DNA of 64,000 nucleotides, taken from an archaeon. Lineage in GTDB: Archaea; B1Sed10-29; WALL01; JAGHAM01. The notes under the pieces were generated by a model. That model did no database searches. It was given only the letters and a program-made list of their open reading frames with translations, and was not told the origin of the DNA. Numbering within the stretch: position 1 is the first letter of the stretch; every line of letters starts with the position of its first letter. Both the position numbers and the translations under genes were made by a program. Where the stretch lies: contig JAIOSL010000007.1 in NCBI GenBank assembly GCA_021107635.1, positions 36,188 through 100,187 of the forward strand. The letters run 5' to 3'. This document shows, in pieces, positions 10,557 to 26,407 of the stretch.

Positions 10557-11647
10557 TATTTTATTTCAAATTCTTTTGATTCGATTTCGTACCAGTCTTC
10601 TTGTTCAAGGTCTCTTTTATATTTCATTACCATTTTGTATGTTCCTTCTGGTACCGGTTTGAATGGTTCTTCTTCTACATGATGATAAAATGTTTGCCCC
10701 CAAGACAGTTCAATGCTATCTTTTGCTGGAACTTCATAGCAATGGTATGGTTCATTATCCATTGAGCAGAGTTTGCCGGGTTCAAACGTGGTGAATTCCT
10801 GCCAATTGCCTTGGAACAACCAGTTAACCGTGAACGGATGTTTGTTACAGTTGGTCAAGCCATACGCAAAATAGCAGATTTGCTGGTCAAGGTTGTTGGT
10901 TAGTTTTATTGTAACAGTTTCGCCCATTCCGTAAACGTCTTTATTAGTGCTCAAGCCTACTGCAGGACCTGGAACTTCTTTTTCAATGCACGTACATGTG
11001 CCAAGTGGTAGTTCATTGTCACATTCCTGGCCTGCTAAACAATCTTCATCTGTTTTACATTCATCACTAGCAGTACATCCTGCTGGTTCTTCTTCAATGC
11101 ACTTGCAGGTTCCTTGTTCCACGTCATTATCACAATAGCCGGTTTCACAATCTGAATTACTTTCACATTCTGCTCCACATTCTTTAGAGCAATAAGCAGG
11201 TTCTAAAGTTCCAGTACAAGTGTTATCTTTGCATTCTATTCCTGCTTTGAATGGAGTCTCCGCTGATTCGCCTCCAATTTCGCTGGGTTGACAGAACTCA
11301 CAATCTTCAACAGTTTCACAATAATTAGAAAGTTCTGTTTTTTCTTTACAAAAACAAGCGTTGCAGTCCTTTCCTTCTGAGCATTCTGGCATACCATTAC
11401 CACATTCTGCTCCACAGGCTTCCACACAAGTTTGAATAAGACTTGTTTGACACTGGCCGTTTTTACATTCTCCTGGCTGGCCAAAACCAGAGCCAGGTGC
11501 AGTACATAAAGCATATGAGGTGCACTCAGAATCAGATGAACAGGAGTTACTTTTTTGTAATCCTGGTAAACTCACTGCTATTAAAATAATTATTATTGCT
11601 ATGAATGCTAGAACAGCTATTCCTGCGTACAATTTTTTTTCTTTCAT
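10553..11647 (-). CDS. Cysteine-rich secreted protein with repeated EGF-like Cys spacing. Hypothetical.
   Basis: 364 aa. N-terminal TM/signal MKEKKLYAGIAVLAFIAIIIILIAV, then about 40 Cys in repeated CxxxC / CxC modules (CKCIEEEPAGCTASDECKTDEDCLAGQEC...), then a Cys-free C-terminal beta-rich domain. Confidence 0.6.
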   Translation of the reverse strand: MKEKKLYAGIAVLAFIAIIIILIAVSLPGLQKSNSCSSDSECTSYALCTAPGSGFGQPGECKNGQCQTSLIQTCVEACGAECGNGMPECSEGKDCNACFCKEKTELSNYCETVEDCEFCQPSEIGGESAETPFKAGIECKDNTCTGTLEPAYCSKECGAECESNSDCETGYCDNDVEQGTCKCIEEEPAGCTASDECKTDEDCLAGQECDNELPLGTCTCIEKEVPGPAVGLSTNKDVYGMGETVTIKLTNNLDQQICYFAYGLTNCNKHPFTVNWLFQGNWQEFTTFEPGKLCSMDNEPYHCYEVPAKDSIELSWGQTFYHHVEEEPFKPVPEGTYKMVMKYKRDLEQEDWYEIESKEFEIKY

Positions 11648-11679
11648 TTGTTTTCACCCAGCACGTAGACATGCACGGA

Positions 11680-12228
11680 CTATTTATTTAAAACTTTCTT
11701 GATGTCTTCTAAAAGTAATGGAAATGTTTCATATCCTGCGTCTCTGTTAAAGTGGCCTGCATTTTCAACTATTGTAGGCTCTATGCCCAGATTTTTTGCC
11801 AGTTCCTTCCCTGTTTTTAGATTTATGTATGGGTCAGTAGTAGAAGAATATGATTTTATGTGTTTACAGTTTTGTTTTATGTTTTCCCAGTTTACTGGAC
11901 CATAAAAACTGCTATTAAGAAAGTCTAGTGCTAGGTCTCCTATTTTATCGTGGAATCCGGCTACCAGAAAAGCTGCTTTCGCAGGATTTTTTCCCAAATA
12001 TCTTAGTATGAAAGCTGCTCCAAGACTGTGTCCTACTAAAATGCTTTCTTTATCAACTGCATATTCACTGAATTTTTTGTTCCAGTTGTTAAGGGTTTGT
12101 CTTGCTGGAGTAGGAAAAGAGGGTACAAACACTTCACAGCCTACTTTTTCTAACTGCATTTTTAGCCAGGGAAGCCAATTTTCTTCTGGGAATCCATAAA
12201 CGCCATGTATCATGAATACCTTCGTCAT
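11680..12228 (-). CDS. Alpha/beta-fold serine hydrolase (RBBP9/YdeN-like).
   Basis: 182 aa with the nucleophile elbow GHSLGA. Short esterase-like family. Confidence 0.65.
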   Translation of the reverse strand: MTKVFMIHGVYGFPEENWLPWLKMQLEKVGCEVFVPSFPTPARQTLNNWNKKFSEYAVDKESILVGHSLGAAFILRYLGKNPAKAAFLVAGFHDKIGDLALDFLNSSFYGPVNWENIKQNCKHIKSYSSTTDPYINLKTGKELAKNLGIEPTIVENAGHFNRDAGYETFPLLLEDIKKVLNK

Positions 12229-12246
12229 GTTAGTTCCAACTCTCTT

Positions 12247-13743
12247 CTAGTTTATATCCTCTTCTGATTTAATCACATACTCTACAAGTTTTTCTGGTAT
12301 GCCTACGGTGGAAGCAATGCTGAATGCTTCTATCATTTTGGTTATTCCCTCATATGCTCTAATTTCTTCTGAAAAAGCCGGTTTTCCTTTTCCATCACGT
12401 ACTTTATTTTCTTCTGGAAAAACATGTTCCATTTTATTTAAAACGTTTTCAGCGATTCCCAATGAGATTGAATAAGTGAGAATCTGGTCCCAAAGATGAA
12501 CATGCAGAGGCGGATGATCTTCCATGTTACTGAAGTCTCGAACATACCGTCTGAACGCTTTCCATCTTTTGAAGTGCAAGTTACCCTTACTACTTTTTAA
12601 GAGTAGTTCACCTTTGGCATATCTTCTTAGTCCTATTCCAAAAAGTGTTCCAAAGAAAAAGAATGAGAACGGCGTGACAGGCAAAAGCACTGAGATCAAA
12701 TTTCCAATGTATGCATCCCCTCCAAAAGCAAAAAATATTGCTGTCAGGATGGGTATTAGCACTATGCTTATGAGCAGTTTATCAAAGTTTTTGTAGTCCA
12801 CTTTTCCTTTTCGAATGCTTTTAATGAGTACTTGTAAACCGCTTGTAGCCAATTCAATTATTTTTGCTAGAACATAAGTCCAAATTAGGATTGATGAAAG
12901 TATAATAGCTAAAATTGTCAGTGTGCCTACGATTCCACCACCCATTAAAACATAAAGTGATGCCCTTCCATATTCTTCAGGAACTCTAATTAGTACTCCA
13001 CAACTTACAATAGACAATACGGTTATTGCAGCTATGCCTGCATATATGTTTACTAAAAGTTCAAAACGTGCTAGTCCTTCCCTACTAAAGTTTAACAGGT
13101 CCATTCTGTTAACTTCATCTCTTACTAAGTAAGCCCAATGAGGGAAAAAGCTGTTAAACCAATTATGTTCTTTTATTGTTTCATCTCGAATTTGGGAAAA
13201 TGAAAGCTTGCCTTCTGCTTTAATACTTTCTTTAACGAGAAGATCATAGACTATTCTAACACTCGTTATTTTTGGTCCCGTCTCTTTTTTTATTTTTATG
13301 ATATAATCCTTCCCAGCTTTTTCAAGTTCAATGTAACCCAAATTTTTCAAGTAGAATATAGTAGCAAGAAAATCTCTCGGTAATGGTAATTCATGCATTT
13401 CATTCATTAATGCACCTACATACGCAGGAGGATAATCATAGGGGGGCTGTTGTTCGTATTCATTATGATAGCTTGAGTATTCTTCTCTCCCATATTTTTT
13501 GTGAATGTATGCTAGATATACAAAAATTGATGCTGCTCCTAAGACAGCTGCAAAAAGGTGTGCTATAGCAAGAGAATATGGCAATGCATTCTCAAAATAT
13601 TTTGTTGCAAAAAGTCCCAGCGGGTACATTATTGCTAGGCATGCTAATGGAAGAACTATGCCTATCATTGGAAATAGTACTATCATCAATTGGTTTTTCC
13701 AGTTTCCTTTAGGCATACAGTTATTTTTACAATCAGCGCGCAT
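12247..13743 (-). CDS. Polytopic membrane protein (DUF2207-like architecture). Hypothetical.
   Basis: 498 aa. N-terminal helices, a central soluble region, and C-terminal helices with a Gly-rich FFFFGTLFGIG segment. Confidence 0.55.
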   Translation of the reverse strand: MRADCKNNCMPKGNWKNQLMIVLFPMIGIVLPLACLAIMYPLGLFATKYFENALPYSLAIAHLFAAVLGAASIFVYLAYIHKKYGREEYSSYHNEYEQQPPYDYPPAYVGALMNEMHELPLPRDFLATIFYLKNLGYIELEKAGKDYIIKIKKETGPKITSVRIVYDLLVKESIKAEGKLSFSQIRDETIKEHNWFNSFFPHWAYLVRDEVNRMDLLNFSREGLARFELLVNIYAGIAAITVLSIVSCGVLIRVPEEYGRASLYVLMGGGIVGTLTILAIILSSILIWTYVLAKIIELATSGLQVLIKSIRKGKVDYKNFDKLLISIVLIPILTAIFFAFGGDAYIGNLISVLLPVTPFSFFFFGTLFGIGLRRYAKGELLLKSSKGNLHFKRWKAFRRYVRDFSNMEDHPPLHVHLWDQILTYSISLGIAENVLNKMEHVFPEENKVRDGKGKPAFSEEIRAYEGITKMIEAFSIASTVGIPEKLVEYVIKSEEDIN

Positions 13744-13745
13744 TT

Positions 13746-14312
13746 TTAAGCTTTTTTGAATTCTTTTTCAAATTCTTGAGTGAATCTTTCCCATGATTCA
13801 GCGGTTTTTTCCATTCTTTTGTTTGCTTCTTCTATAATCAAGCGAAAATAGCTTTCATCGATGAGTATTTCCTTCTTTTTCACTGGAAGTCCAAGCTTGT
13901 AAGTACCTTCTAGTTCAATCTGAATTCTCTCTGGAGCAATACTGAATACTCCTCCTCTTTTGAGGCCTGCATTTGCTTTAACTCGTAAGAACTTGGTTGC
14001 CGTTTCTATGTTTTTACATGAGATGTGCAGGATGAGAGAATCATTTTTTAGCCATATGAATTCGCCTTTAGCTTTGTTGAGCTGTTCCCACGCTTCTTCA
14101 AATGTTGTGGTGCGATGAATTTTCCACAAGAAATTAGCATTTTTTTTAGAAAAACCAGGTAAATCAATAAACACTATCCTACCATAACAGGAAGAACTAG
14201 TAATAAGCTCTGGCACCGAATTAATCAGATCAAGATAAGGTTTGACTTCTGGGTCGCATCCTTCCTTTTCAAGCTTTGCGAGTAAGTGTTGTTTGAGTTG
14301 GTTCCATGTCAT
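13746..14312 (-). CDS. Possible Taw3/TYW3-family tRNA wyosine-derivative methyltransferase.
   Basis: 188 aa. The SSSCYGRI motif resembles the conserved Ser-Cys-Ser-Gly-Arg region of TYW3. The size fits. Assignment made by eye only. Confidence 0.4.
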   Translation of the reverse strand: MTWNQLKQHLLAKLEKEGCDPEVKPYLDLINSVPELITSSSCYGRIVFIDLPGFSKKNANFLWKIHRTTTFEEAWEQLNKAKGEFIWLKNDSLILHISCKNIETATKFLRVKANAGLKRGGVFSIAPERIQIELEGTYKLGLPVKKKEILIDESYFRLIIEEANKRMEKTAESWERFTQEFEKEFKKA

Positions 14313-14316
14313 ATGC

Positions 14317-15285
14317 TCACTTTGTTAAAAGTGCTAGCTGAGCAAGAAATGCTTCTAGCTGGATGCGTTCGTTAGCGCCTTCGCTTACTCTAAAATCAGT
14401 TTCTCCGATTTTATCTATTAACTTTAATTTCAGTTCATCTGAAATGCTTTCGTTCCTGATAATCTCAGAATTTAATTGAAAAAGCACATCTTCTCCAGAT
14501 AAAGAATATTCATACATTAATTTGTCAAGCTGATCTCGAGCATTAATGAACTCACCTTTTGTGGCAAGATCAATCATTTTTTTGACTTCTTCGGGTCTAG
14601 CTTTTGAGGTGACTTTGTAAACAGTATCTTCGTCAATATGTTCCGAAGTGGAACTTACTACTTGAAGTACGTTAACAGCTTTTCTCATGTCTCCTTGAGA
14701 AACATAAACAATAGCTTCCAACGCTTTTTTATCTAGAGTCAAGCCCTCTTCTTTAGCAATGTATTCAACTCGCGTTTTCATGTTATCTTCTGATAAAGGA
14801 GTAAACCTAAAAATCGCGCAGCGTGATTGAATTGGAGGTATTAACTTAGATGAATAGTTACAGCTAAGTATGAATCTGCATGTGCGAGAGTAACGTTCCA
14901 TTGTGCGTCTTAAAGCATTCTGTGCGTCTCTGGTGAGGGAATCACTTTCGTCAAGAAAAATGATCTTGAATGGCACATTACCTAAAGATAATGTTGCAGC
15001 AAAATCTTTTACTTTTTCGCGTATTACATTAATTCCACGTTCATCACTTGCATTTAACTCAAGAAAACTTCTGCGCAGTTCTTCTCCGTAAAGTTCATGC
15101 GCTAAAGCGAGGGCAGATGCAGTTTTGCCAATCCCTGCTCTCCCAGTGAAAAGCAGATTAGGCATGTTTTTGCTTTTTGCGTAAGCTTTCAGGCGTTTTA
15201 CTACCTCTTCTTGTCCAACCACTTCGCTTAAAACGTGTGGCCTGTATTTTTCTGTCCATGGTAGTTCTGCTTCCATCTTCCTCAC
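14317..15285 (-). CDS. rfcS: Replication factor C small subunit.
   Basis: 322 aa. PWTEKYRPHVLSEVVGQEEVVKRLKAY...LLFTGRAGIGKTASALALAHEL...IIFLDESDSLTRDAQNALRRTMERYS...SRCAIFRF. Confidence 0.9.
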   Translation of the reverse strand: MRKMEAELPWTEKYRPHVLSEVVGQEEVVKRLKAYAKSKNMPNLLFTGRAGIGKTASALALAHELYGEELRRSFLELNASDERGINVIREKVKDFAATLSLGNVPFKIIFLDESDSLTRDAQNALRRTMERYSRTCRFILSCNYSSKLIPPIQSRCAIFRFTPLSEDNMKTRVEYIAKEEGLTLDKKALEAIVYVSQGDMRKAVNVLQVVSSTSEHIDEDTVYKVTSKARPEEVKKMIDLATKGEFINARDQLDKLMYEYSLSGEDVLFQLNSEIIRNESISDELKLKLIDKIGETDFRVSEGANERIQLEAFLAQLALLTK

Positions 15286-15345
15286 TCGTAAGTTAATAAA
15301 CGAAAAGGTATATAAAAGGTGGGCGGCCTATTAATAGGGATAATC

Positions 15346-15714
15346 ATGGCCAAAAAGAAAAATTGGAAGGAGGCTGAAACTGAATTGGAAGGAATTCCAG
15401 TAGCAACTTCTGAAGCAATTCCAGGATATACAATCAAAGCATACAAAGGTTACGTTTGGGGAACTACAGTTAAGGCCCGATTTATCGGTCATGACATCAT
15501 TGCAGCTGTTAAGATGTTGATTGGGGGAGAAATTGATCAATATACTAACATGATTAACGAGGCAAAACTTGAAGCAGTTCACAAAATGGTCAAAAATGCG
15601 AAAGCATTGGATGCTAATGCTGTGATAAGCGTACGCGCAGGCACTGCACAAGTGTTGCCGGGTACAGTTGAAATATTCTGTTATGGTACTGCAGTAGAAG
15701 TTATTCCAGAATGA
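15346..15714 (+). CDS. YbjQ/UPF0145 family protein (putative heavy-metal-binding domain).
   Basis: The ATG at 15346 gives MAKKKNWKEAETELEGIPVATSEAIPGYTIKAYKGYVWGTTVKARFIGHDIIAAV, the UPF0145 signature. Confidence 0.75.
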   Translation: MAKKKNWKEAETELEGIPVATSEAIPGYTIKAYKGYVWGTTVKARFIGHDIIAAVKMLIGGEIDQYTNMINEAKLEAVHKMVKNAKALDANAVISVRAGTAQVLPGTVEIFCYGTAVEVIPE

Positions 15715-15725
15715 GGTGTTAATTA

Positions 15726-16118
15726 ATGGATAAAAAAGTTTCTCTTATAGCGTCAGGAGCAGTTTTTCTTCTGGTTTTAGTGGTAATACTTTCATACTTA
15801 AACATATTATTTATTTCTCTTGCTTCAATAGCACTTGGATTTTATTTTATCGGATTGGCTTTTCCTGAAATTTTCAAAAAAATAAAATATGCTCATACCA
15901 TTTGGGTTCCTATTGGATTCACACTTGCCGGTTTTATTGGATTTTCATTCCTTTTCGGACAAAACACTTTTCCGATAATATTTTCTTCCAACTGGTGCTC
16001 TAAACTGCCTTGTTTTCCTTTGTATATCTTTTTTGTTGCTTTCGCAATGGGTAACATGGCAAACTGGCTTAGTTACTTTTTGGTAGGCGAAGAACTCAAT
16101 TTGATTGAAGGACAATGA
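15726..16118 (+). CDS. Small membrane protein (four TM helices). Hypothetical.
   Basis: 130 aa, entirely hydrophobic helices. Its stop overlaps the start of the next gene. Confidence 0.5.
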   Translation: MDKKVSLIASGAVFLLVLVVILSYLNILFISLASIALGFYFIGLAFPEIFKKIKYAHTIWVPIGFTLAGFIGFSFLFGQNTFPIIFSSNWCSKLPCFPLYIFFVAFAMGNMANWLSYFLVGEELNLIEGQ

Positions 16119-17356
16119 AAGCATACGTGGAAACTTATGGTTGTACGCTTAATCAAGCTGATTCAAAGATAATCGAAGGCATACTCTTGAAAGAAGGCGT
16201 AGAGCTCGTAGACAATCCAAAAAAAGCAGACATAATTTTTTTGAATACCTGTGCAGTTAAAAACGCTACTGAAAACAGAATGCTCAGCAGGATACGCAAA
16301 CTCGATGCTAACAAGCTAGTGGTATGTGGATGTCTGCCAAAAATTAATGAAAAAGAAATACGAAAAGCAAGCAAATGTGTTTTATTAGACACAAACTCTC
16401 TTGATAAAATTCCTTATCTCTTAAAAGAACGCAGAGATTTTTTCTCGCAAAAACACTTGAACAAACTTGAACTGCCTTTTGCCGCGCAAGGCATAATTGC
16501 AGCAATACCTATAGCAGAAGGATGTTTAGGCAATTGTGCGTTCTGTGCAACCAGAAATGCAAGAGGAATGCTCACCAGTTATCCAATCAAAGACATCAAG
16601 CTTGCTGTTGAGCAGGTTATACAACAAGGAGCAAAAGAAATCCGCTTGACTGCTGAAGACACTGGATTTTATGGTTGGGATAAAGGCACTTCATTGACAG
16701 TTTTAATGGAAAAACTTTGTGAAATTCCCGGAAAGTTTAAGATACGCATAGGAATGATGGATCCTTTCGCAGCATACACGCAATTACCCGATCTACTCAA
16801 GGCATTTGATAATGAAAAAATATACCAATTTGTTCATTTGCCAGTGCAAGCAGGCAGCGATTGCGTGCTGAAAACAATGAACCGTAAATATTCTGCAAGC
16901 GAGTTCATTGAAGTCACTGATGCTTTCCGAGATAAATTTCCAGACATGACATTAGCAACAGATATCATCGTAGGTTTTCCAGAGGAAACAAAAAAAGATT
17001 TTCAGAAGACGCTTGAACTTCTTAAACAAGTTAAACCAGAAGTCATAAACATCTCAATGTTCTATCCAAGACCAAACACTCCTGCTTCAAAAATGAAAAA
17101 ACTGCCGACACAAACTCTTAAAGAAAGAAGTCGGGCTTGTACGCTTCTCCGTGAGAAAATTTCTTTACAAGCAAATGAACGTTTTGTCGACAAGATTTTT
17201 GAAGTAACTGTTCTTGAGAAAGGTAGAAAAGGAGGTTTTATAGCACGACTTCCTAACTACAAACAAGCCCTGTTAGAGCAAGCAGAAATAGGAGAAACAA
17301 CTAAAATCAGAATAATTAAAGCATTTCCAACCTATCTCAAAGCACAAAGATTGTAA
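16115..17356 (+). CDS. Radical-SAM tRNA methylthiotransferase, MiaB/MtaB (CDKAL1-like) family.
   Basis: 413 aa. MTTase N-domain MKAYVETYGCTLNQADS. Radical-SAM CxxxCxxC (EGCLGNCAFCATRNARG). C-terminal TRAM-like domain. Confidence 0.85.
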   Translation: MKAYVETYGCTLNQADSKIIEGILLKEGVELVDNPKKADIIFLNTCAVKNATENRMLSRIRKLDANKLVVCGCLPKINEKEIRKASKCVLLDTNSLDKIPYLLKERRDFFSQKHLNKLELPFAAQGIIAAIPIAEGCLGNCAFCATRNARGMLTSYPIKDIKLAVEQVIQQGAKEIRLTAEDTGFYGWDKGTSLTVLMEKLCEIPGKFKIRIGMMDPFAAYTQLPDLLKAFDNEKIYQFVHLPVQAGSDCVLKTMNRKYSASEFIEVTDAFRDKFPDMTLATDIIVGFPEETKKDFQKTLELLKQVKPEVINISMFYPRPNTPASKMKKLPTQTLKERSRACTLLREKISLQANERFVDKIFEVTVLEKGRKGGFIARLPNYKQALLEQAEIGETTKIRIIKAFPTYLKAQRL

Positions 17357-17410
17357 ATACGTTTTTGCAATAAGTCAATGATTAAATAAAGGGTTGACTA
17401 CAAATATTAC

Positions 17411-18175
17411 ATGCTCAAATTCGTCACGGATTCGATTGAAACATATCTTGAAGCCTGGCGGCTCATTTTAGTCTTAGGTTTCATTGTTTTTGCTATACTC
17501 CTCTTTCTTACAAGCTTCTTCACTTATGTTGTAGCAGGGGCTGGGTTCATACGCTATTCCTCACTTCTTGGAGGAGAATTCGATTATGTGCAACTATTCA
17601 TTCTTGCAGTAATCTCCCTACTAAGCCTTTTCTGCCTAGCGTTTTTATCCGTAGGAGTGACAATGATAGTCAAACTAAAACGCTCTCTTGACGACATAGA
17701 GTTCCTAAAATTCATAATAAGATTTCCTCGATACATCTCCAGATTAATGCTCTGGTGGATAATACTTGGAGCAATCACCTTCATAATCACTATTTCATTC
17801 AACGCAATCGGTGCACCAACATGGATATCAGCTCTAGCAATGCTATTACTCTGGGCATTTTTTATCTTCCTCCCTCAATCCCTGGTTCTTCATGACACTG
17901 GCTTCTGGGATGCACTTAAAGAAAGCTCTCAATATTGCATGAAAAGACCTGGAGCAGTCATATTGTATTATTTAATCAGCAGTTTCTTGTTGTTTGTTCT
18001 AGTATGCCTAGAAGTAATATTTGGACAGTTTTTTCTGGGAGACATGTCTCTTACATGGATAGCCGTAATAACAAATTCTCTGCTATTATTCATAGTTTTC
18101 ATCCCGTTCCTTGAGATCATCAAAGCAAACGTTTTCGTAGCAAGGTACAGGCTCCTAACACTCGGACTTAAATAA
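17411..18175 (+). CDS. Polytopic membrane protein. Hypothetical.
   Basis: 254 aa with six or more predicted TM helices. Confidence 0.5.
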   Translation: MLKFVTDSIETYLEAWRLILVLGFIVFAILLFLTSFFTYVVAGAGFIRYSSLLGGEFDYVQLFILAVISLLSLFCLAFLSVGVTMIVKLKRSLDDIEFLKFIIRFPRYISRLMLWWIILGAITFIITISFNAIGAPTWISALAMLLLWAFFIFLPQSLVLHDTGFWDALKESSQYCMKRPGAVILYYLISSFLLFVLVCLEVIFGQFFLGDMSLTWIAVITNSLLLFIVFIPFLEIIKANVFVARYRLLTLGLK

Positions 18176-18187
18176 GGTGATCAAAAA

Positions 18188-19789
18188 ATGAATTTTGTTG
18201 TTGTTACAGGTGGCGTATTAAGTGGATTAGGAAAAGGAATAGTAACATCCTCACTAGGCAAAATCCTTCAATCAAAAGGGCATAAAATCGCGCCAATCAA
18301 ATTTGATGGTTATCTTAACGTTGACGCAGGAACCATGAACCCATACAGGCACGGAGAAGTATTCGTGCTTGAAGATGGCACAGAATGTGACATGGACCTA
18401 GGAAACTACGAACGCTTCCTTGGTGTCACAATGAACTATTATAATAATCCTACTGGTGGCAAAATCTTCAAGCTTGTCCTAGACAAAGAACGCAAAGGCG
18501 AGTATTTAGGTGCTGACGTCCAATTCATTCCGCATGTTACGGGCGAAATCAAAAACTGGGTTAAAAAAGTAGGCAAAGATGCAAAAGCAGACTTTGTGAT
18601 GATTGAAGTAGGCGGAACCGTCGGAGACATAGAAAACGCATACTTCATAGAAGCAATGCGTGAATTAGCCGTGGAAAAACCCGGCAAAGTAATGTTTATT
18701 CACGTCACACTAGTCCCAGTCTTGAAAGTAGTAGGCGAACAAAAAACAAAACCAACTCAACAATCAGTCAGAGAACTCCAACGATTAGGCGTTCAACCAA
18801 ACTTCATAGTCTGCAGATGCGAAAGACCAATAAAAAAAGAACAAAAGAAAAAAATAGCATTATTCTGCAACGTTCCAGAAGACCATGTTATTTCAGACCA
18901 CGACTGCAATTCAATATATGAAGTTCCATTCGTATTAGAAGAAAGCAAATTCGGAGACCAAGTGCTTGAATCTTTTGGAATAGAAACCACAAACAAAGAC
19001 CTGAAAGAATGGAGAGTACTTGTCCACAACATGATAAAACCAGAAAAAGAAATTACCGTAGGAATCACCGGTAAATACACAGCATTACGTGACTCTTACG
19101 TATCTATCGTAGAAGCGCTCACGCACTCAGGCGCACACGAAAAAACCAAGATTAACTTCAAGTGGATAGAAACCACTGAATTAACAGACGAAGAAGTAGC
19201 AGAAAAAATGAAAGACGTAGACGGCATAATAGTTCCTGGTGGGTTCGGAGCCAGAGGCACTGAAGGAAAAATAAAATGTATCACACAAGCCAGAAACAAC
19301 AATATTCCTTTCCTAGGATTATGCTATGGCATGCAACTAGCAGTCATCGATTATGCGCGCAACGTTTGCGGACTGGACAATGCAAATTCCACTGAAATCG
19401 ATCCGAAAACACCTTATCCCGTAATAGATATTCTTCCTGAACAATACAAGGTGGAAGGTCTTGGAGGAACAATGCGTTTAGGAGCATACGATGCGACTAT
19501 CAAGAAAGGCACTCAAGTTTACAATCTGTACGGAAAAGAGAATGTTAGCGAGAGGCACAGACACCGTTACGAAGTCAATCCGAAATACATTAAACAAATC
19601 GAGGAAAAAGGCTTGATCTTTTCCGGAGTTTCACCAAAGAGAACGCTAATGGAGTTTATTGAATTGCCTGGACATCCTTTCTTTATTGCTACTCAAGCAC
19701 ATCCCGAATTTCAATCTTATCTGGAAAAGCCTGCTCCGTTATTCCATGGTTTTGTTAAAGCCTGCATAAAACACCACCAAAAACACTAA
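18188..19789 (+). CDS. pyrG: CTP synthase.
   Basis: 533 aa. MNFVVVTGGVLSGLGKGI...GATase domain GLCYGMQLAVIDYARNV...HRHRYEVN. Confidence 0.92.
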   Translation: MNFVVVTGGVLSGLGKGIVTSSLGKILQSKGHKIAPIKFDGYLNVDAGTMNPYRHGEVFVLEDGTECDMDLGNYERFLGVTMNYYNNPTGGKIFKLVLDKERKGEYLGADVQFIPHVTGEIKNWVKKVGKDAKADFVMIEVGGTVGDIENAYFIEAMRELAVEKPGKVMFIHVTLVPVLKVVGEQKTKPTQQSVRELQRLGVQPNFIVCRCERPIKKEQKKKIALFCNVPEDHVISDHDCNSIYEVPFVLEESKFGDQVLESFGIETTNKDLKEWRVLVHNMIKPEKEITVGITGKYTALRDSYVSIVEALTHSGAHEKTKINFKWIETTELTDEEVAEKMKDVDGIIVPGGFGARGTEGKIKCITQARNNNIPFLGLCYGMQLAVIDYARNVCGLDNANSTEIDPKTPYPVIDILPEQYKVEGLGGTMRLGAYDATIKKGTQVYNLYGKENVSERHRHRYEVNPKYIKQIEEKGLIFSGVSPKRTLMEFIELPGHPFFIATQAHPEFQSYLEKPAPLFHGFVKACIKHHQKH

Positions 19790-19799
19790 GTTTTCAACT

Positions 19800-19828
19800 C
19801 CCTCCTGAGGCTCTAGGGGTTCAACCCC
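19800..19828. repeat. Left copy of a paired motif block: ccctccYgaggctct followed by aggggttcaacccc.
   Basis: ccctcctgaggctct is at 19800-19814 and aggggttcaacccc at 19815-19828. Both 14-15-mers recur at 20583-20615 in swapped order. Each can form a short hairpin (GGGG-TTCAA-CCCC; CCTC-YY-GAGG). Confidence 0.6.
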
Positions 19829-19849
19829 AGGTCATCTCCCTAAAATAAA

Positions 19850-19862
19850 TATAATTATATAC
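19850..19862 (+). promoter_or_regulatory. AT-rich TATA-like element upstream of the antitoxin-like gene (probably a leaderless transcript).
   Basis: The sequence taattatata is centred about 28 nt upstream of the ATG at 19886. There is no obvious SD spacing. Confidence 0.3.
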
Positions 19863-19885
19863 ATGTTAGTTATATAAATATATCC

Positions 19886-20161
19886 ATGCAAACGTCTGTC
19901 ATAATTGAAAAGGTAGGACACTCTCCAACGCTGAACACTGTGATAATGATAGAACGCACAATAGAAAAAGCTGGCGAACCTCTCACACTCGCAGAACTCA
20001 AGCGGAAACTCCCAAGAAAAGTCATGCACTCCACACTATTAGCAGTGCTTGATTATCTCCAAGAAAGCGGGAAGATAATCATCACCACAAAAGGTGTTGT
20101 CTGGATTTTTGCTCCTAGGAAAGAAATCGAAGCGATGAAAAAGAGGGGCATACAACTATGA
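19886..20161 (+). CDS. Small winged-helix DNA-binding protein, putative antitoxin of a two-gene cassette.
   Basis: 91 aa. LTLAELKRKLPRKVMHSTLLAVLDYLQESGKIIITTKGVVWIF (wHTH-like). Its stop overlaps the downstream start by ATGA. Confidence 0.55.
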   Translation: MQTSVIIEKVGHSPTLNTVIMIERTIEKAGEPLTLAELKRKLPRKVMHSTLLAVLDYLQESGKIIITTKGVVWIFAPRKEIEAMKKRGIQL

Positions 20162-20526
20162 GGAGCATCCAAGTCTTCATAATAGATGAAGCCGAAGAAG
20201 AGTTCAAGCAATTAAACAAGCTGGTCGGCGAACAGCGAGAAAAAGACATCAAAAACTCTGAGGAAATCCAGTTGCTTAAATCGATAAAGAAAAAGAGGGA
20301 CATACTCAAACTAAATCCTGTTTATGGTGATAAGATTCCTCGTAAGTACTGGCCGAAAGAACTTGTCGGAAGATACCAGCTCACTAACTTATGGAGAGTA
20401 GAACTCACGAGCTATTGGAGAATGTTATACACCCTGAGAGGAGATAAACTAGAAGTGCTCTGTTTTGTTATCGAGATATTAGACCACAATCAATACAACC
20501 AGCTCTTCGGATACAAAAAGAAGTAG
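20158..20526 (+). CDS. RelE/ParE/YoeB-superfamily toxin-like protein.
   Basis: 122 aa. The C-terminal half PRKYWPKELVGRYQLTNLWRVELTSYWRMLYTLRGDKLEVLCFVIEILDHNQY matches the RelE/YoeB fold signature, with the aromatic W..R, the YRLVY-like strand and a terminal H..Y. It is translationally coupled to the upstream wHTH gene. Confidence 0.55.
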   Translation: MRSIQVFIIDEAEEEFKQLNKLVGEQREKDIKNSEEIQLLKSIKKKRDILKLNPVYGDKIPRKYWPKELVGRYQLTNLWRVELTSYWRMLYTLRGDKLEVLCFVIEILDHNQYNQLFGYKKK

Positions 20527-20582
20527 AACAAGCTTTCCGCGGAAATTTCCTAGGAAATGTATTGTGTGTGTCGTGGGGATCT

Positions 20583-20615
20583 AGGGGTTCAACCCCTGTT
20601 CCCTCCCGAGGCTCT
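20583..20615. repeat. Right copy of the paired motif block: aggggttcaacccc, then tgtt, then ccctcccgaggctct.
   Basis: Exact 14-mer at 20583-20596. The 15-mer with one mismatch is at 20601-20615. It sits just after the toxin stop at 20526. Confidence 0.6.
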
Positions 20616-20696
20616 CAACCTTTGTTTATAGAACTCCAACTGCTTAGATTAAACTCTGTTGACAGATGCTCACAGAAGGTTCCAAAAGGGTGTTGT

Positions 20697-21428
20697 TCAT
20701 TTCAGGCTGATTCTCATGCCTTTGAAGAGACTCTTGAAATTCTTGTACGTTATCTTCTCGTAAACTTCTTTTGGCAGCTCAAGAGTTTCTAGTTCTGTCT
20801 TAGCTACAAGAGGATAGATGTATGGGGAATCTGAGCCAAACAACAGTTTGTCCGGTCCAGCTTCTTTTATTACTCTTTGCAAGCGGTAGTTGCTTAACAA
20901 GGAGGTGTCAATGTACATGTGCTCATATTTATTCACCAATCTCACGGCATGATGATAATAGCATGTTCCTGCATGGCCAATTATTATCGGGGCAGGGTAA
21001 TCCTTTAAAAGCTCGATATTTTTCACGTGAGTGTGTGGCCTGTGATCGGTATGGATTATCAGAGGAAGCGAATGTTTAGCTGTTTCCTTGAATATCTGGA
21101 GTGCTTTTTTCAAGTGATACTCTCTGGTGTGGATCTTTACTCCTTTGAGACCTAATTCGCGAAGTTCTTTTTCTTCTTGTTTCCAAGTTTTACTTAGCGG
21201 AGTCAGCCTTCCGAATCCAATAAACCTCTGAGGGTACTTTTTGCAGCACTCGTGTATGTAGTTATTCGCATTAGAAAAGTTGTAGTTCATCGCGTTGTGG
21301 CAAAAAGGGAAGACAATTGCTTTATTCACACCAGCAGTATCCATCTTCTCGATTAGTTCTTCGGCATTCTGGTTTTCTGCTATGATTCCACTTCTGCCGC
21401 CTATGTGAGTATGGCAATCAATAAGCAT
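20697..21428 (-). CDS. Amidohydrolase-2 family (TIM-barrel metal-dependent hydrolase).
   Basis: MLIDCHTHIGG (metal-binding HxH), then internal His/Asp ligands (IIHTDH, GHAG). The probable ATG is at 21428 and overlaps the upstream gene end by a few nt. Confidence 0.75.
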   Translation of the reverse strand: MLIDCHTHIGGRSGIIAENQNAEELIEKMDTAGVNKAIVFPFCHNAMNYNFSNANNYIHECCKKYPQRFIGFGRLTPLSKTWKQEEKELRELGLKGVKIHTREYHLKKALQIFKETAKHSLPLIIHTDHRPHTHVKNIELLKDYPAPIIIGHAGTCYYHHAVRLVNKYEHMYIDTSLLSNYRLQRVIKEAGPDKLLFGSDSPYIYPLVAKTELETLELPKEVYEKITYKNFKSLFKGMRISLK

Positions 21429-21432
21429 TTTT

Positions 21433-22767
21433 CTACATCTCCGAGTACACAAAAGTAGGAAGTATTGCTCCTCCCCCGTGAAGGTTAATGACGCTTTTTT
21501 CTGATGCTCGTGCTAGACATCCCTTGAAGCTGTTGTTAAAGACATGAGGGTTGATATTCATCTTTTTATCTTCGAAAACAATGCCATTCTTTTTAACTAC
21601 TGGCAGATCTATCTCATTTGGCTTCAAGTACTCTTGGGCTATCCAGTCTTCTCTTCCCACTGCTCTTTTTACTGCTGCATTCCATTTCTTACTAGGAGTA
21701 TCCAAACCAATCATGACGCCAGCTCCCCCGTATCCAGAGGACGGCTTCAAGACAAATTCATCCTTGTTTTCAAGCAAAAGTTTTTCCAGTTCATGCTCCC
21801 CTTCTTTATACTCTACTGTTTTCTCTGTGGTAGGGTAGGTCCACGGCAAGTGTTTACTTAAAAACTTTTTTTCTTTGGAGTTAAGAGAATTGTCAAAGTA
21901 TCCACTCCTAAGCAGCCATATTATCTTCTTGTTGTTGGGTACAATTGATTGAAAATTGTTTACAATGCATGTCTTCTTGCTTTTCACTGCTGCGAGGAAG
22001 TCTTTTACACTTGCCTTGTGATCCATTAGCTCTGAGACTATTGCTCTCTTGTATACAACATCTATTTCCTTGTTTTTGTACACGAGTTTTCCTGATTTGT
22101 GCTTCAGCTTTCGTGGATCTACTGTAAACGCGTCAAAACCTCTTTTTCTCAAGAAGGTTGCTGTTAACCATATATCACTTTCTATGGGCTCCCAGTCCAC
22201 CAATGCAATCGTGGGAAAGTCTTTCTCTTTCCCAAATTGAGTATAGCACTTTTTTATTTCTTCTGACAAGCTCGTAAGGAGTGAACTTTGCTCTAGCTTG
22301 TAGCTCTCGCTGACTTCTTCCAGAGTAGTCGTTTCCATGAACAGTTGTGCCGTTATGTTTGCGATGGCCATGCTACCTGGGCTATCGGTGTTGAATTCTA
22401 TGAACTTTGGCGTTCCATTCTCTATTATCAGGTCAAGGCGGGATATTGCAACTGGGTTATTGTATCCTGGGTCAATGTGTATAAAAGAAGAGAGAAAAGA
22501 ATCATATCCTAATAGCCTATGAAGTTTATCGTTTCTGGAGTTCTCTCTTGTAATTTTATTGAGTATACCAGCCATTTTCTCTGAAAGTTGTTTGATTTTT
22601 CTTTCCTGATACTTGCTCAGGAAACAAGGTTCAAAAAAGAAAGAATAAGGTTCTTTATTAATCAACAAATTGCTTCGTATGAATGCTTTTTTCATTTCTT
22701 CGATTTCTTGGATTACTCTTTCTTCGTTCTTTGCTACAATGCTCCTATAGTCATCTTCAATAGACAT
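21433..22767 (-). CDS. Glutathionylspermidine-synthetase-like pre-ATP-grasp family amide ligase.
   Basis: 444 aa. RLDLIIENGTPKFIEFNTDSPGSMAIAN matches the GspS-like R(F/L)D....G.PK.(L/I)E.N(A/T)D(T/S)P core. Confidence 0.65.
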   Translation of the reverse strand: MSIEDDYRSIVAKNEERVIQEIEEMKKAFIRSNLLINKEPYSFFFEPCFLSKYQERKIKQLSEKMAGILNKITRENSRNDKLHRLLGYDSFLSSFIHIDPGYNNPVAISRLDLIIENGTPKFIEFNTDSPGSMAIANITAQLFMETTTLEEVSESYKLEQSSLLTSLSEEIKKCYTQFGKEKDFPTIALVDWEPIESDIWLTATFLRKRGFDAFTVDPRKLKHKSGKLVYKNKEIDVVYKRAIVSELMDHKASVKDFLAAVKSKKTCIVNNFQSIVPNNKKIIWLLRSGYFDNSLNSKEKKFLSKHLPWTYPTTEKTVEYKEGEHELEKLLLENKDEFVLKPSSGYGGAGVMIGLDTPSKKWNAAVKRAVGREDWIAQEYLKPNEIDLPVVKKNGIVFEDKKMNINPHVFNNSFKGCLARASEKSVINLHGGGAILPTFVYSEM

Positions 22768-22778
22768 GTATCCACCTC

Positions 22779-24110
22779 TTACAGTTCTAATCCTTCAAGG
22801 AGTTCTGTGTAATCTATAGTTTCTTTCTTTGTTTTGTATGCCCAGTTTAAAGCTATCTCTGCTGCTTCTTTTTTCGAGAGTTCACTGTCTAGGTTAAAGC
22901 CTTTTCTTTTTGCTGAGGAGATTATCCTATCTGAAACCGTTTTCTTTTTCTTGATTAGTGATAAGAGAGGTTTCAGTGCTGGCATATACTCCTTGTGCAG
23001 AGATGGTTTTATGAACCTAAGAAACCTAGTTGTGTACTTCCTGATTTTTTTGCTGCTGAAGCCGTTGTAAGCAGATTCTCGTTGTAGGATGTTTCTTACA
23101 GTGGTGTGGGGAGGGATATATACTACGTTTCCCTCTCTTTTGAATGCTTCTTCAACTGTTATGTCGGCTGGAACTACTTTGTGGAAGTCTTGCTGTATTT
23201 CTCTAAAAAGGAATTTCAGCAGAATGCCTGCTCCAATCATGTACTGCGGGTAGTTTACGTCCATTCCTCTAAGTTCCAGTGTTCCAAGTTTGTTGATTCT
23301 TACAACATTCCAACACAAGTCAAGAGTGTGGGTTTTTTCCATAGTCTTTCCTGGATTTACTCCGGCTTTTTCGATTAACTTTTTTACTCTTTTTTCTCGC
23401 TTCCTTATAGAGTATATCAAGTCTTTTTCTGTTTGTTTGTAAGGGGGGAGGCCGCCTAAAAGCTGCTGGTTTCCATACATGCCTTTTGGGTAGTTTAGTT
23501 GCTTCCCTCCCCTATAATACAGGAGGCGCGAATCTTTAGCTAGGTTTCTGCCGTCGACAAAAGGAGAAGATTGGAGGAAAGAAGTAAGGATGGGATCAAC
23601 TGCTATTGCGACATTGTAACTGTGCATCATGCTCTCCTTTATCTTGGAGTGCTTCATCACTCTGAGGAATCCTTTCTTGTGGTCGAAAATTCCTCTTGGG
23701 AGGGTGTAGTGATAGTGAAACCCCGCGCACAAGAGAGCTTTTCTGAAACGATCTTTTCCAAATACTCTTTGTTGAATCAAATACCAGCGTTTTTTTCTCA
23801 TTGCCGGCTCGTATCTCATTGGATGTGTTGCGAAAGGGAAGACATACATATCCTTTTTTCCGGCTATTTCACAAACATGCTCCAGTGTATGCAGCAAGTC
23901 CGCTGAAGTGTTGTTCACATTTATTGAAGGGTATGATGTCAGTTCTATCCAGCTTTTGTTACATTCTGTCTTAACTCTATTTCTACCTAATTCTTTTCTA
24001 CATTCTTTGATTATTGGATCAACATTTTTTATTGGGATGCCATTGTTATCTAAAATGCAAAATTCAGCCTCGAATCCCGAAAGAGATTTCTTCAATCGTC
24101 GAACACTCAT
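22779..24110 (-). CDS. Glutamate-cysteine-ligase family 2 (GCS2/YbdK-type carboxylate-amine ligase).
   Basis: 443 aa. GFEAEFCILDNNG (compare GVEEEYLLVD). ELTSYPSINVNN (compare EVNTPPC). ATHPM (compare GTHPF). CAGFHYHYTLP (compare ICGMHVHVGVP). Confidence 0.75.
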   Translation of the reverse strand: MSVRRLKKSLSGFEAEFCILDNNGIPIKNVDPIIKECRKELGRNRVKTECNKSWIELTSYPSINVNNTSADLLHTLEHVCEIAGKKDMYVFPFATHPMRYEPAMRKKRWYLIQQRVFGKDRFRKALLCAGFHYHYTLPRGIFDHKKGFLRVMKHSKIKESMMHSYNVAIAVDPILTSFLQSSPFVDGRNLAKDSRLLYYRGGKQLNYPKGMYGNQQLLGGLPPYKQTEKDLIYSIRKREKRVKKLIEKAGVNPGKTMEKTHTLDLCWNVVRINKLGTLELRGMDVNYPQYMIGAGILLKFLFREIQQDFHKVVPADITVEEAFKREGNVVYIPPHTTVRNILQRESAYNGFSSKKIRKYTTRFLRFIKPSLHKEYMPALKPLLSLIKKKKTVSDRIISSAKRKGFNLDSELSKKEAAEIALNWAYKTKKETIDYTELLEGLEL

Positions 24111-24373
24111 ATTATTACAACTAGTTACTGTATCCTTGTGAACTCCTGTATTTAAAGCATGGATGTTTTCAAGGAGGGAAAAGATATGAGTTATGATGAA
24201 CTTTAAAAGTTATCTTTCCCTGTCTTCCAGTGACAATGGGTATGGATCTACATGTTTGGAGTCTAGGCCATCCCGAAATTTTAGTCTAAAACTAGTAAAG
24301 TTCCCTGATACGCTCCTGCGAAAAGCTTTAATTACTCCTCCCCCCAAATCAACCAACACGCGCAGGGAAAAAA

Positions 24374-26407
24374 ATGAAACTTATCATAGCAGAAAAACAA
24401 ATTGCCGCGAGAAGAATTGCCGAAATCCTCTCAAAAGGCAAAGCAACAACAATTCAAGAAAAAAGACTATCTATTTTTGACATAGGCAACGATACTCTAG
24501 TCGTACCACTAAGAGGACACATACTAAGCGTAGACTATCCAAAACAATACAATGACTGGAGAAGCACTAATCTACACTCACTAATCAAAGCACCCATCCA
24601 ATACACGCCCAGCGAAAAAGACATTGTTGCAGTACTACGTAAATATGCTCCAAAAACAAAAGAAGTGATAATAAGCACAGACTTTGATACTGAAGGAGAA
24701 TCAATAGGCAAAGAAGCAGTTGACATCCTACAAGAAAAAAACCCTAAAATCAAAGTAGCCAGGACAAGATTCAGTGCAATAACCACAGAAGAAGTAGACC
24801 ACGCATTCAACAACATATGTGAACTAGATTATAACCTTGCTGATTCAGCTGATGCAAGAAGAGAAATAGACCTATTATGGGGTGCAGTGCTCACACGGTT
24901 CGTTTCACTCTCATCAGGAAGACTAGGACACAAATTTTTGTCAGTAGGTAGAGTCCAAACACCTACACTAGCATTAATTGTTGACCTAGAACTTCAAAGA
25001 CAAGCATTCAAAAAAGAAGCCTACTGGATAATCTCAGCAATCTTTAACAAACAATTCAACTTTGAAGGCACTCATAAAGAAGGTAAATTCTGGAAAGAAG
25101 ACCAAGTCAAACAAATCTACGAAAAAATAAAAGACGAAAAACAAGGTACAGTCACCAAAGTCACAAAAAGTAAGAAAAACCTAAAACCGCCAGTTCCTTT
25201 CAACACTACTGGTTTCCTCCGCGCTGCAGCCAATCTTGGATTAAGTCCATCAAGAGCAATGTCAATAGCAGAAACTCTATATATGGCAGGATATGTTTCA
25301 TATCCTAGAACTGACAATACAGTATATCCTCCTTCACTAAATCTTAAAAAAATACTACAAAAATTTGAGAGTCACTCTGAATTCGGAGAACATGCCAAAA
25401 AAATACTCTCACGCGGCAAAATCACACCAACAAAAGGACCTAAAAAAGCAACGGATCACCCTCCAATTACTCCGATGGAACCAACAACAAAAAGCAGGCT
25501 GGATGCACAACAATGGAAAATCTACGAACTAATAGTGCGCAGGTTCTTTGCCACGCTATCACCGAAATGCGAGCTTAATGTTGTTAAAGTAGAAATAGAT
25601 GTCAAACAAGAACTATTCATATGTAACGGTCAAACCTTAATAGAGCCAGGCTGGAAAGAAGTTTATCCTTATTCTACAGTCAAAGAAGTCCGATTACCTG
25701 AACTTGAAAAAGGAGAAAAAATAGAGATAAAACAGCTCACACTTACTGAAAAAGAAACTAAACCTCCAGCACGATACACACCAGCAGCACTAATCAAAAA
25801 AATGGAGGACCTTGGACTAGGCACTAAAAGTACGCGACCGGAAATCATCAAAAAACTACAATATCGTGCATACATACAAGGAACAAAAAACTATGAACCA
25901 ACCAAGATTGCATTCGCATTAATTGAAGCGTTAAAAAAGCATGCTTCAGACATCACCGATCCAAACATGACCGCAGAACTAGAAAAAGACATGGAAAAAG
26001 TACAAGGAGGAAAAAAGAAAAAACAACAACTCGTCCAATCCTCCCAAACAATGCTTTCCACAGTCCTAGATAAACTATCCTCAAAAAATCAAGAAATAGG
26101 TAACTCGCTCAGAGAAGCAGCAGGACAAACTGATACACTAGCAAGATGTGAATGTGGCGGAGACCTTCGCATAATTCGCTCACGCAAAACAGGAAAACGG
26201 TTCGTAGGATGCACAAACTACGCTAAAGGCTGCAGACATTCATTTCCACTACCCCAAAAAGGTACAGTAACGCAAACAGATAAAATCTGTCCACACTGTG
26301 GTTCTCCAGTAATAAAAGTACGCTTACGGAGAGTCTTTGAAATGTGTCTAGATCCACACTGTGAAACTAAAAAAGACTGGGGCAAAAAAAAGAAAAGCAA
26401 GCAGTAA
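24374..26407 (+). CDS. topA: DNA topoisomerase I (type IA) with C-terminal Zn ribbons.
   Basis: 677 aa. MKLIIAEKQIAARRIAEIL (Toprim). Active-site region GYVSYPRTDNT (catalytic Tyr). C-terminal CECGGDLRI...C and CPHCGSP...C zinc fingers. Confidence 0.88.
   Translation: MKLIIAEKQIAARRIAEILSKGKATTIQEKRLSIFDIGNDTLVVPLRGHILSVDYPKQYNDWRSTNLHSLIKAPIQYTPSEKDIVAVLRKYAPKTKEVIISTDFDTEGESIGKEAVDILQEKNPKIKVARTRFSAITTEEVDHAFNNICELDYNLADSADARREIDLLWGAVLTRFVSLSSGRLGHKFLSVGRVQTPTLALIVDLELQRQAFKKEAYWIISAIFNKQFNFEGTHKEGKFWKEDQVKQIYEKIKDEKQGTVTKVTKSKKNLKPPVPFNTTGFLRAAANLGLSPSRAMSIAETLYMAGYVSYPRTDNTVYPPSLNLKKILQKFESHSEFGEHAKKILSRGKITPTKGPKKATDHPPITPMEPTTKSRLDAQQWKIYELIVRRFFATLSPKCELNVVKVEIDVKQELFICNGQTLIEPGWKEVYPYSTVKEVRLPELEKGEKIEIKQLTLTEKETKPPARYTPAALIKKMEDLGLGTKSTRPEIIKKLQYRAYIQGTKNYEPTKIAFALIEALKKHASDITDPNMTAELEKDMEKVQGGKKKKQQLVQSSQTMLSTVLDKLSSKNQEIGNSLREAAGQTDTLARCECGGDLRIIRSRKTGKRFVGCTNYAKGCRHSFPLPQKGTVTQTDKICPHCGSPVIKVRLRRVFEMCLDPHCETKKDWGKKKKSKQ

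Follow-up and report, generated by a model that had tools for sequence, protein, structure and literature searches.

What raised our curiosity in a 64-kb stretch of contig JAIOSL010000007.1 (hereafter the window, positions 1-64000), from the metagenome-assembled genome (MAG) of a DPANN-type archaeon with a GC content of 38.6%, is a small toxin-antitoxin (TA) cassette that lies downstream of pyrG between two short blocks sharing the same motifs: are these blocks the footprint of an insertion and, if so, of what kind? The initial annotation described them as two hairpin motifs in swapped, seemingly circularly permuted order, and took them for either the footprint of a site-specific insertion or a pair of RNA structural elements. 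Our analyses show that the blocks are two copies of one element, termed E here, which form an imperfect direct repeat around the cassette. The explanation that we favour, with a confidence that stands about even, is that the cassette is a TA module of a mobile, DPANN-wide family and that the repeat is the scar of a single-crossover (Campbell-type) integration, which would probably proceed through a circular intermediate.

Two copies of one element flank the cassette

Motif A (CCCTCCYGAGGCTCT) was found twice in the window at up to two mismatches, against 0.08 matches expected from dinucleotide shuffles, from which all expected motif counts were taken, while motif B (AGGGGTTCAACCCC) occurs twice as an exact 14-mer on the plus strand (positions in Table 1). 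When both strands and up to two mismatches were allowed, motif B gave five matches against 0.15 expected, two of which are reverse-strand reads of the same two sites, the motif being a near-palindrome; neither motif was found elsewhere in the window. Taken literally, the left block reads A-B and the right block B-TGTT-A, which is the swapped order first reported. A repeat search, however, returned a 31-nt in-register direct repeat (19803-19833 against 20571-20601, 84% identity), and gapped local alignment gave the 38-nt repeat listed in Table 1, with 30 of 38 positions identical, one gap and a 17-nt identical core, TCTAGGGGTTCAACCCC. The alignment score of this repeat is 39, compared with a shuffle maximum of 23 and with 15-16 in within-locus controls.

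Alignment of related blocks revealed that the full element E, of about 45-50 nt, has the form A-B-N4/5-A in the right copy of the window and in both copies at L007, the locus that carries the closest cassette. In the left copy of the window the 3' A ends after CTCCC, exactly at the start of the conserved cassette promoter, and the right copy has a degenerate 5' A (TCGTGGGGATCT). The apparent swap thus arises because E is A-B-A and each copy retains a different intact A, so that a circular permutation of two hairpins is no longer called for, and an imperfect direct repeat of one element is a better description of the blocks than swapped motifs. The left copy is closest to the solo copy of L007, L007b (CTGAGGCTTT-AGGGGTTCAGCCCC-TGAGC-TCTCCC). 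Since identical blocks and the cassette are carried by L001 and L002, two independent assemblies of the same organism (99.96-99.99% identity), an assembly artefact is ruled out.

Table 1. Coordinates of the cassette, its flanking copies of element E and the surrounding insertion in the window
Feature	Position	Strand	Remarks
Left copy of element E	19800-19840	+	A 19800-19814, B palindrome 19815-19828, spacer AGGTCAT, truncated 3' A (CTCCC, 19836-19840) touching the cassette promoter
Cassette promoter and probable operator	19841-19885	+	AT-rich, TATA-type, arranged TATA...GTTAG...TATA; putative function
91-aa partner, antitoxin candidate, probably winged helix-turn-helix	19886-20161	+	conserved pairing, weak Pfam and model evidence
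122-aa RelE/ParE-superfamily toxin candidate	20158-20526	+	AlphaFold2 model, Foldseek, conserved residues
3' spacer, 44 nt	20527-20570	+	two neighbouring palindromes, TTTCCGCGGAAA and TTTCCTAGGAAA (20534-20557)
Right, complete copy of element E	20571-20619	+	degenerate A' TCGTGGGGATCT, B 20583-20596, TGTT, A 20601-20615, CAAC
Bracketed cassette	19803-20607	+	38-nt imperfect direct repeat 19803-19840 / 20571-20607; identical 17-nt core 19812-19828 / 20580-20596
Lineage-specific insertion at the pyrG/topA junction	19790-24318		TA cassette and convergent amidohydrolase / ATP-grasp / GCS2 operon

The gene pair resembles a type II toxin-antitoxin module

Both open reading frames (ORFs) of the cassette and their ATGA overlap were found as originally annotated, and the RelE/YoeB-like fold proposed for the 122-aa protein held at the level of the RelE/ParE superfamily. 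Its AlphaFold2 model, computed with 37 homologues, reached a predicted local distance difference test score (pLDDT) of 83.7 and a predicted template modelling score of 0.74, and nearly all of the top 40 Foldseek matches in the PDB were RelE/ParE-fold toxins, including PfiT (9w3a, E=3.7e-4), YoeB (2a6r_C; TM-target 0.78, root-mean-square deviation 2.5 Å), aRelE (1wmi), ParE2 (5cw7) and HigB2. The best Pfam match, PF24732 (ParE_like), scored 20.0 bits, under the cut-off of 24.4, and no match was obtained from NCBIfam, from PADLOC or from a PDB sequence search with the family profile. Across the 37-sequence toxin alignment Y91, H110 and Y113 do not vary, while R88 is almost constant (at least 90%); they are candidates for the catalytic-type residues of YoeB and RelE, an Arg in a beta-strand and His/Tyr towards the C terminus. 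An hhalign comparison with YoeB was weak (probability 12.6%) and set the NLWRVELT-YWRMLY core of the motif NLWRVELT-YWRMLY...DH..Y over GFWSRRIT-EHRLVY of the YoeB motif GFWSRRIT-EHRLVY...HY, with the conserved residues in the region of YoeB R65. The predicted N-terminal helical hairpin, antiparallel sheet and C-terminal helix are shared with the toxins of the E. coli YoeB-YefM (2a6r/2a6q), Pyrococcus aRelE-aRelB (1wmi), ParE2-PaaA2 (5cw7) and PfiT-PfiA (9w3a) pairs, while the candidate is longer than YoeB (84 aa). A RelE/ParE-superfamily fold is hence firmly supported by the model; the candidate would act either as an RNase (RelE/YoeB-like) or as a gyrase poison (ParE-like).

In 55 of 56 loci the partner gene of about 90 aa stops just a few bases from the start of the toxin gene, mostly with a 4-nt overlap, and a small upstream antitoxin with such an overlap is also the layout of RelE/ParE-type modules. 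As for the winged helix-turn-helix (wHTH) antitoxin originally proposed, a winged-helix protein is the probable answer: the Pfam matches of the partner were all below threshold, mostly to winged-helix families, so that no Pfam family is assigned, and its single-sequence model has low confidence (pLDDT 51.7) with an H-H-H-beta-beta-H, wHTH-like topology, while a profile search against PDB sequences came back empty. We therefore regard a winged-helix antitoxin as plausible from the predicted topology; such a partner of no assigned family would be unlike the Phd/YefM, RelB/RHH and PaaA2 antitoxins. The AT-rich promoter attributed to the cassette was corroborated by the conservation of about 45 nt directly 5' of the antitoxin ATG, TATA-rich and partly palindromic, in 30 family loci with unrelated contexts, and this region is a probable promoter and operator. 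Altogether, the gene pair is supported as a translationally coupled type II TA module, with toxin activity and antitoxin DNA binding as predicted functions.

The mean column identity is 67% in the partner alignment (A4) and 62% in the toxin alignment (A1), the antitoxin candidate being the more conserved of the two. In type II TA pairs the toxin is usually more conserved than the antitoxin, the opposite of this family. The sequence TCCTAGGAAA recurs within the antitoxin gene (20113-20122), besides the palindromes of the 3' spacer; this spacer is missing from the closest cassette, L007.

A cassette family in changing genomic contexts

Homologues form 62 clusters, with at least 552 loci in JGI metagenomes, and every taxonomically named homologue is from DPANN archaea (Micrarchaeota, Diapherotrites, Nanoarchaeota and Woesearchaeota). 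The cassettes are about 0.75 kb long, carry their own conserved promoter and are found after a Hef helicase gene (L003, L006), among nucleotidyltransferase genes (L004) or beside YjbQ (L007), among other contexts. Cassettes with 70-85% amino acid identity adjoin non-homologous genes. Blastp of all flanking ORFs showed that the window, L007, L015, L016 and L017 share the cassette genes only, and the same holds for L026, L053 and L034. These comparisons support the assignment of the gene pair to a DPANN-wide cassette family that appears to move between genomic sites. Cassette P0013, also considered, has one fixed context and lacks the motif.

At the pyrG/topA junction itself, the closest pyrG relatives, L018 (82%) and L019 (75%), keep the upstream order GARS ... 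RFC, YbjQ, MiaB-like, membrane protein and pyrG as well as the downstream order topA, Big_13 and ABC transporter, the latter agreeing with the window ORFs from 24374 on by ORF size and strand. Only 10 nt separate pyrG from topA in L019, a methyltransferase gene lies between them in L018, and homology to the topA leader of L018 restarts near 24318. Because these relatives keep the synteny while the TA pair is absent downstream of their pyrG, the region from 19790 to about 24318 is a lineage-specific insertion. The cassette does sit in the pyrG 3' gap that it was first said to fill, but the insertion relative to L018 and L019 is larger than the cassette and includes the three-gene ligase operon. 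Neither relative has an E-like block at this place, and the left block can therefore not be a terminator conserved with pyrG.

Element E in related cassettes

At L007, where the toxin is 84% identical and the neighbour is YjbQ, the sequence GGCTCT-AGGGGTTCAACCTC-TGTT-CACTCCCGAGGCTTT-AAC follows directly after the toxin stop. A diverged E is also present after the toxin stop in L015 (74%) and L016 (75%), with the flanks GGATCTAG... and TTCCCTCCCGAKGCTYT kept and hairpin B replaced, and L017 carries an E-like block 5' of its promoter and none downstream. Homology between loci stops at the outer edge of E. A second clade (L026/L053) behaves in the same way with a different element of about 50 nt. 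The conservation of E with the cassette indicates that the right copy belongs to the DNA that appears to travel with this cassette clade, and E is conserved at the level of sequence, not of structure, as judged from its weak consensus fold.

We had to consider that E is a dispersed genome-wide repeat, an objection that the initial annotation had itself foreseen. The only two copies in 64 kb are both at the cassette, no E-like block was found in 32 kb of the closest relatives, and a scan of GTDB genomes (596 Gb) with the pattern GGMTYTAGGGGTTCARCCYC returned seven matches, all in unrelated taxa and chance-like; two viral scans gave chance matches only. Within the sequence covered, the motifs are thus specific to the locus.

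L007 has a solo E-like copy (1153-1190; CTGAGGCTTT-AGGGGTTCAGCCCC-TGAGCTCTCCC) beyond the unrelated YjbQ gene, which is thereby bracketed by two copies of E. In L014, a MAG of Daviesbacteria, an unrelated bacterium of the candidate phyla radiation, three copies of the hairpin AGGGGTTCAACCCCT lie within 8 kb (46, 2806 and 5131), usually beside A/T runs; it is probably a terminator-like repeat of that genome's own, with no relation to E.

Bracketing repeats recur across the family

To find out how general the bracketing is, the upstream flank, between -260 and -30 relative to the antitoxin ATG, was aligned to the downstream flank (stop to +230) at the 44 loci with enough sequence and in 82 within-locus shifted controls, with a score threshold of at least 35. 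Bracketing repeats were detected at 12 of the 44 loci, the window included, compared with one of 82 controls (Fisher p = 1×10⁻⁵), and the lone control match comes from L004, where a 65-nt repeat surrounds a version of the cassette with three genes. Scores in inverted orientation stayed at background level across the family, and flanking repeats were absent from five other lineage-specific insertions nearby. The repeats measure 24-75 nt, are 79-96% identical and differ in sequence at each locus; in most loci 0-40 nt separate the end of the upstream copy from the promoter (about 70 nt in L062), and the downstream copy begins 3-150 nt past the toxin stop.

Several of these repeats comprise the 3' end of a host gene, and in these cases the target gene stays intact. 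The repeat of L064 consists of the last 11 nt of a tRNA-Gln(CTG) gene and a further 24 nt, that of L074 of the last 15 or so codons of an EF-2-like gene, that of L048 of the last 19 or so codons of a 188-aa gene, and that of L003 of the last 13 codons of Hef with part of the promoter. The displaced copy of L048 is still an ORF with a stop, with a diverged C-terminal tail and a different stop codon, while in L074 and L003 the stop codon and the terminal peptide are unchanged. Only two differences separate the copies of L003, both synonymous, and together with the retained stop and peptide they point to one copy having evolved in a donor genome as coding sequence. Host-derived repeats of differing sequence would fit homology-driven recombination at least as well as site-specific insertion. 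Of the footprint of site-specific insertion proposed at the outset, what remains is a footprint of insertion or recombination; the qualifier does not carry over, as the repeats of other members are host-derived and different.

Two diverged family cassettes, with toxins about 40% identical, stand in tandem after Hef in L003 (5653-7099), and in front of each lies a copy of the Hef 3' end and promoter, 66 nt long and 95% identical. In L004 (6378-6674) and L003 (7104-7406) the toxin is followed by a third conserved gene of 98-100 aa without a Pfam family, and the 65-nt bracketing repeat of L004 encloses all three cassette genes.

Folding and searches for known recombination sites

Both motifs had been described as hairpins. 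This applies to motif B, a GGGG/CCCC palindrome with a 5-nt loop, but the pairing of motif A is limited to CCTC-NN-GAGG, where the loop is too small for a credible hairpin. Against shuffled sequences, the left block shows no gain in folding (z = 0.05) and the right block only a moderate one (z = -2.35), as a two-tier hairpin of -23.7 kcal/mol. The RNAalifold consensus of the four downstream E elements amounts to only -3.6 kcal/mol with a covariation term of about zero, and no unusual fold was found in the repeat elements of other family loci, which are also without hairpin ends. A conserved RNA structure was rejected, since weak results came from single folds, from the alignment fold and from DNA folds of seven elements at other loci. 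The pair of RNA structural elements envisaged in the initial annotation is not supported either, given that hairpin B is absent from L015 and L016. Long-range pairing between the left and right blocks was rejected too: 21 of 29 positions can be paired by hand, which the partly palindromic A and B make possible, compared with 26/31 and 14/15 in direct orientation.

The absence of an integrase or transposase that had been reported was confirmed by Pfam, which detected no such domain between the repeats or in the genes called from about 10 kb upstream to about 4.5 kb downstream (10158-24981). An origin of B (GGGGTTCAACCCC) from a tRNA, a split tRNA or a permuted tRNA was dismissed, as ARAGORN made no call in the window, there was no Rfam match, and on inspection the 5-nt loop prevents a 5-bp T stem with a 7-nt loop, which makes B unfit as a T-arm. 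In all 64 kb of the window (1-64000), the search for tRNA genes came back empty, as did that for Rfam families at the gathering threshold. An attC site was rejected as well, because no RYYYAAC...GTTRRRY pair occurs on either strand in 19600-20900 and the blocks fold weakly. No cassette array and no IntI were seen either, as the cassette is a single one among housekeeping genes and the called genes include no integrase domain. What the locus does have in common with att-type sites is an identical 17-nt core inside a 38-nt direct repeat that flanks an insert. Hairpin B, at both ends here, is absent from the homologous elements of L015 and L016, and no transposase is among the genes checked.

How the repeat may have arisen

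In the single-crossover integration that we favour, incoming cassette DNA, probably a circle, would carry a segment similar to a resident sequence, and a crossover inside the 17-nt identical core would leave an imperfect direct repeat around the cassette. Either the homologous recombination of the host or a recombinase supplied in trans would carry out this crossover. Loop-out deletion between the repeats would then be disfavoured by toxin addiction, and this would explain why such unstable repeat structures are seen at TA pairs and not at neighbouring insertions. Campbell-type integration needs no dedicated enzyme and predicts an insert with an imperfect copy of the homology segment on either side, one resembling the donor and the other the recipient, whose length can vary; this is the arrangement seen here. 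To our knowledge, most cases of it come from laboratory constructs and from plasmids that integrate, and it has not been described as the natural mode by which a TA cassette family spreads.

Several observations weigh against this explanation. No circular junction, empty E site or recombinase was seen, and the absence of E 3' of pyrG in the closest relatives makes the resident copy that the Campbell model requires hypothetical. The repeats of L003, L048, L064 and L074 are host-derived, whereas E appears to be cassette-borne, so that the mechanism in the window may differ from that at these four loci. The 79% identity of the window repeat is also compatible with an old perfect duplication that has since decayed, no repeat is present at 73% of the testable loci, the third E-like copy of L007, beyond YjbQ, is left unexplained by a simple model, and the antitoxin fold has weak evidence behind it. 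L007 was also considered as a small circular contig and rejected, since a terminal overlap is absent.

A bolder version of the same idea, possible but on balance doubtful, is that the whole family is a minimal selfish element without its own recombinase, which would leave as a small circle together with neighbouring DNA (the 3' end of a gene or tRNA, or E) and re-enter by a single host-mediated crossover, leaving long imperfect repeats behind, with addiction preventing the loop-out. One circle opened at different points would place E upstream (L017), downstream (L007, L015 and L016) or on both sides (the window), which would revive the circular permutation at the level of the whole cassette.

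Among the rival explanations, it is unlikely that the cassette is the remnant of a larger integrated element (a provirus, plasmid or integrative element) of which all but the addictive TA pair was deleted, with the blocks as attL and attR of its integrase. tRNA and gene 3' ends are classical targets of archaeal and bacterial integrases, and the repeats at a tRNA 3' end (L064) and at protein-gene 3' ends, the identical core with diverged arms in the window and the position of the cassette within a 4.5-kb lineage-specific island all agree with such an origin. Integrative elements and their integrase-less derivatives, the cis-mobilizable elements that such a remnant would resemble, are likewise flanked by direct repeats with a tRNA or protein-gene 3' end and leave the target intact. 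Nevertheless, the insert here is about 0.75 kb and holds the TA pair only, its repeats are imperfect and vary with the locus (24-75 nt), and no integrase fragment lies between the blocks and no flanking repeat bounds the wider island, while about 12 independent loci with repeats 0-150 nt from the cassette and nothing else inside would need repeated, near-exact decay. Comparably improbable is a target-site duplication in which wide staggered cuts, made in trans by a transposase or a casposase-like enzyme, would duplicate 24-75 bp on either side of the cassette; it would account for repeats that are locus-specific host sequence in the loci examined in detail and for the lack of an inverted-repeat excess. 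A single crossover fits better than such staggered cuts, because the repeats are imperfect, highly variable in length and situated at host-gene 3' ends, because the differences in L003 are synonymous, and because E persists with the cassette in unrelated contexts, which a target-site duplication does not predict; moreover, the ends of the insert have no terminal inverted repeats. We give still less credit to the idea that E is a functional RNA or DNA signal (a 3' untranslated region stabiliser, terminator, processing site or protein-binding site) that stands by chance after both pyrG and the toxin gene and says nothing about insertion. The two-tier hairpin of the right block speaks for it, as does an identity of about 68% for E after the toxin stop where the toxins share 74-84% amino acid identity, which suggests constraint; yet the left block folds like its shuffles, the consensus fold is weak, E has no Rfam match, L015 and L016 have a sequence that does not pair in place of hairpin B, and the pyrG genes of the relatives are without the block.

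It is very unlikely, in our estimate, that the cassette is integron-like, with E as an attC-type site and with the TA pair and YjbQ of L007 each carrying one site, as in integrase-less arrays (clusters of attC sites lacking integron integrases), a notion suggested by the order TA-E-YjbQ-E in L007. Archaeal integrons exist, including in DPANN, and 10.5% of their annotated cassette proteins are TA proteins (PMC9668308); the TA cassettes of integrons (the Vibrio superintegron and those of archaea, PMC9668308) are promoter-bearing, small, mobile pairs between imperfect direct repeats, as here, and are thought to stabilise their surroundings. However, E is only about 45 nt long and lacks the core-site pair and the imperfect long hairpin of attC, there is no array and no IntI-like gene in 10158-24981, and the repeats of other members are unrelated host-gene 3' ends with no dedicated site. 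Scarcely credible, finally, is a non-autonomous element of the IS200/IS605 type, like a palindrome-associated transposable element, in which hairpin B would be the subterminal palindrome with CAAC cleavage sites 5' of the left and 3' of the right hairpin. CAAC is indeed found 5' of the left block and at the end of the right block, each end has the same palindrome close by, on one and the same strand, and this layout would explain the swap, but neither TnpA nor TnpB is nearby, no further copies exist in 64 kb, hairpin B is missing in L015 and L016, and other family members are without hairpin ends.

By itself, the locus amounts to an ordinary accessory TA module of known kind, of a family without a curated model and with an unclassified antitoxin. 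The modest novelty lies in the recurrent bracketing by long imperfect direct repeats without a recombinase, at about a quarter of the testable loci and in many DPANN archaea; these repeats frequently derive from the 3' ends of essential host genes. If the pattern holds, it would offer a concrete, testable route for the spread and persistence of TA modules in tiny symbiont genomes with few conventional mobile elements, and TA addiction would gain a clear role in shielding a repeat-flanked insertion from deletion.

The ligase operon and the variable pyrG/topA junction

Convergent to the cassette, the minus strand of 20697-24110 encodes an amidohydrolase, a GSP-synthase-like ATP-grasp protein and a GCS2-type glutamate-cysteine ligase, all absent from the pyrG/topA junction of the relatives. 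The amidohydrolase has only two homologues, both distant (36-38% identity), among 5.8 billion proteins, and thus no near relative that could reveal an empty site. No repeats bounding the 4.5-kb island or the ligase operon were found. The operon looks like a rare, horizontally acquired peptide-ligase module, and the pyrG/topA junction of this lineage would be a variable spot that gained this very rare operon as well as the cassette. In the gap between the methyltransferase gene and topA of L018 (12400-12445), the minus strand reads ...GGTTCAAATCCCTTCCCCTGCACCA, which resembles a tRNA 3' end (T-loop, acceptor strand and CCA) without an ARAGORN call; it could be a tRNA fragment or an att remnant at the same variable junction.

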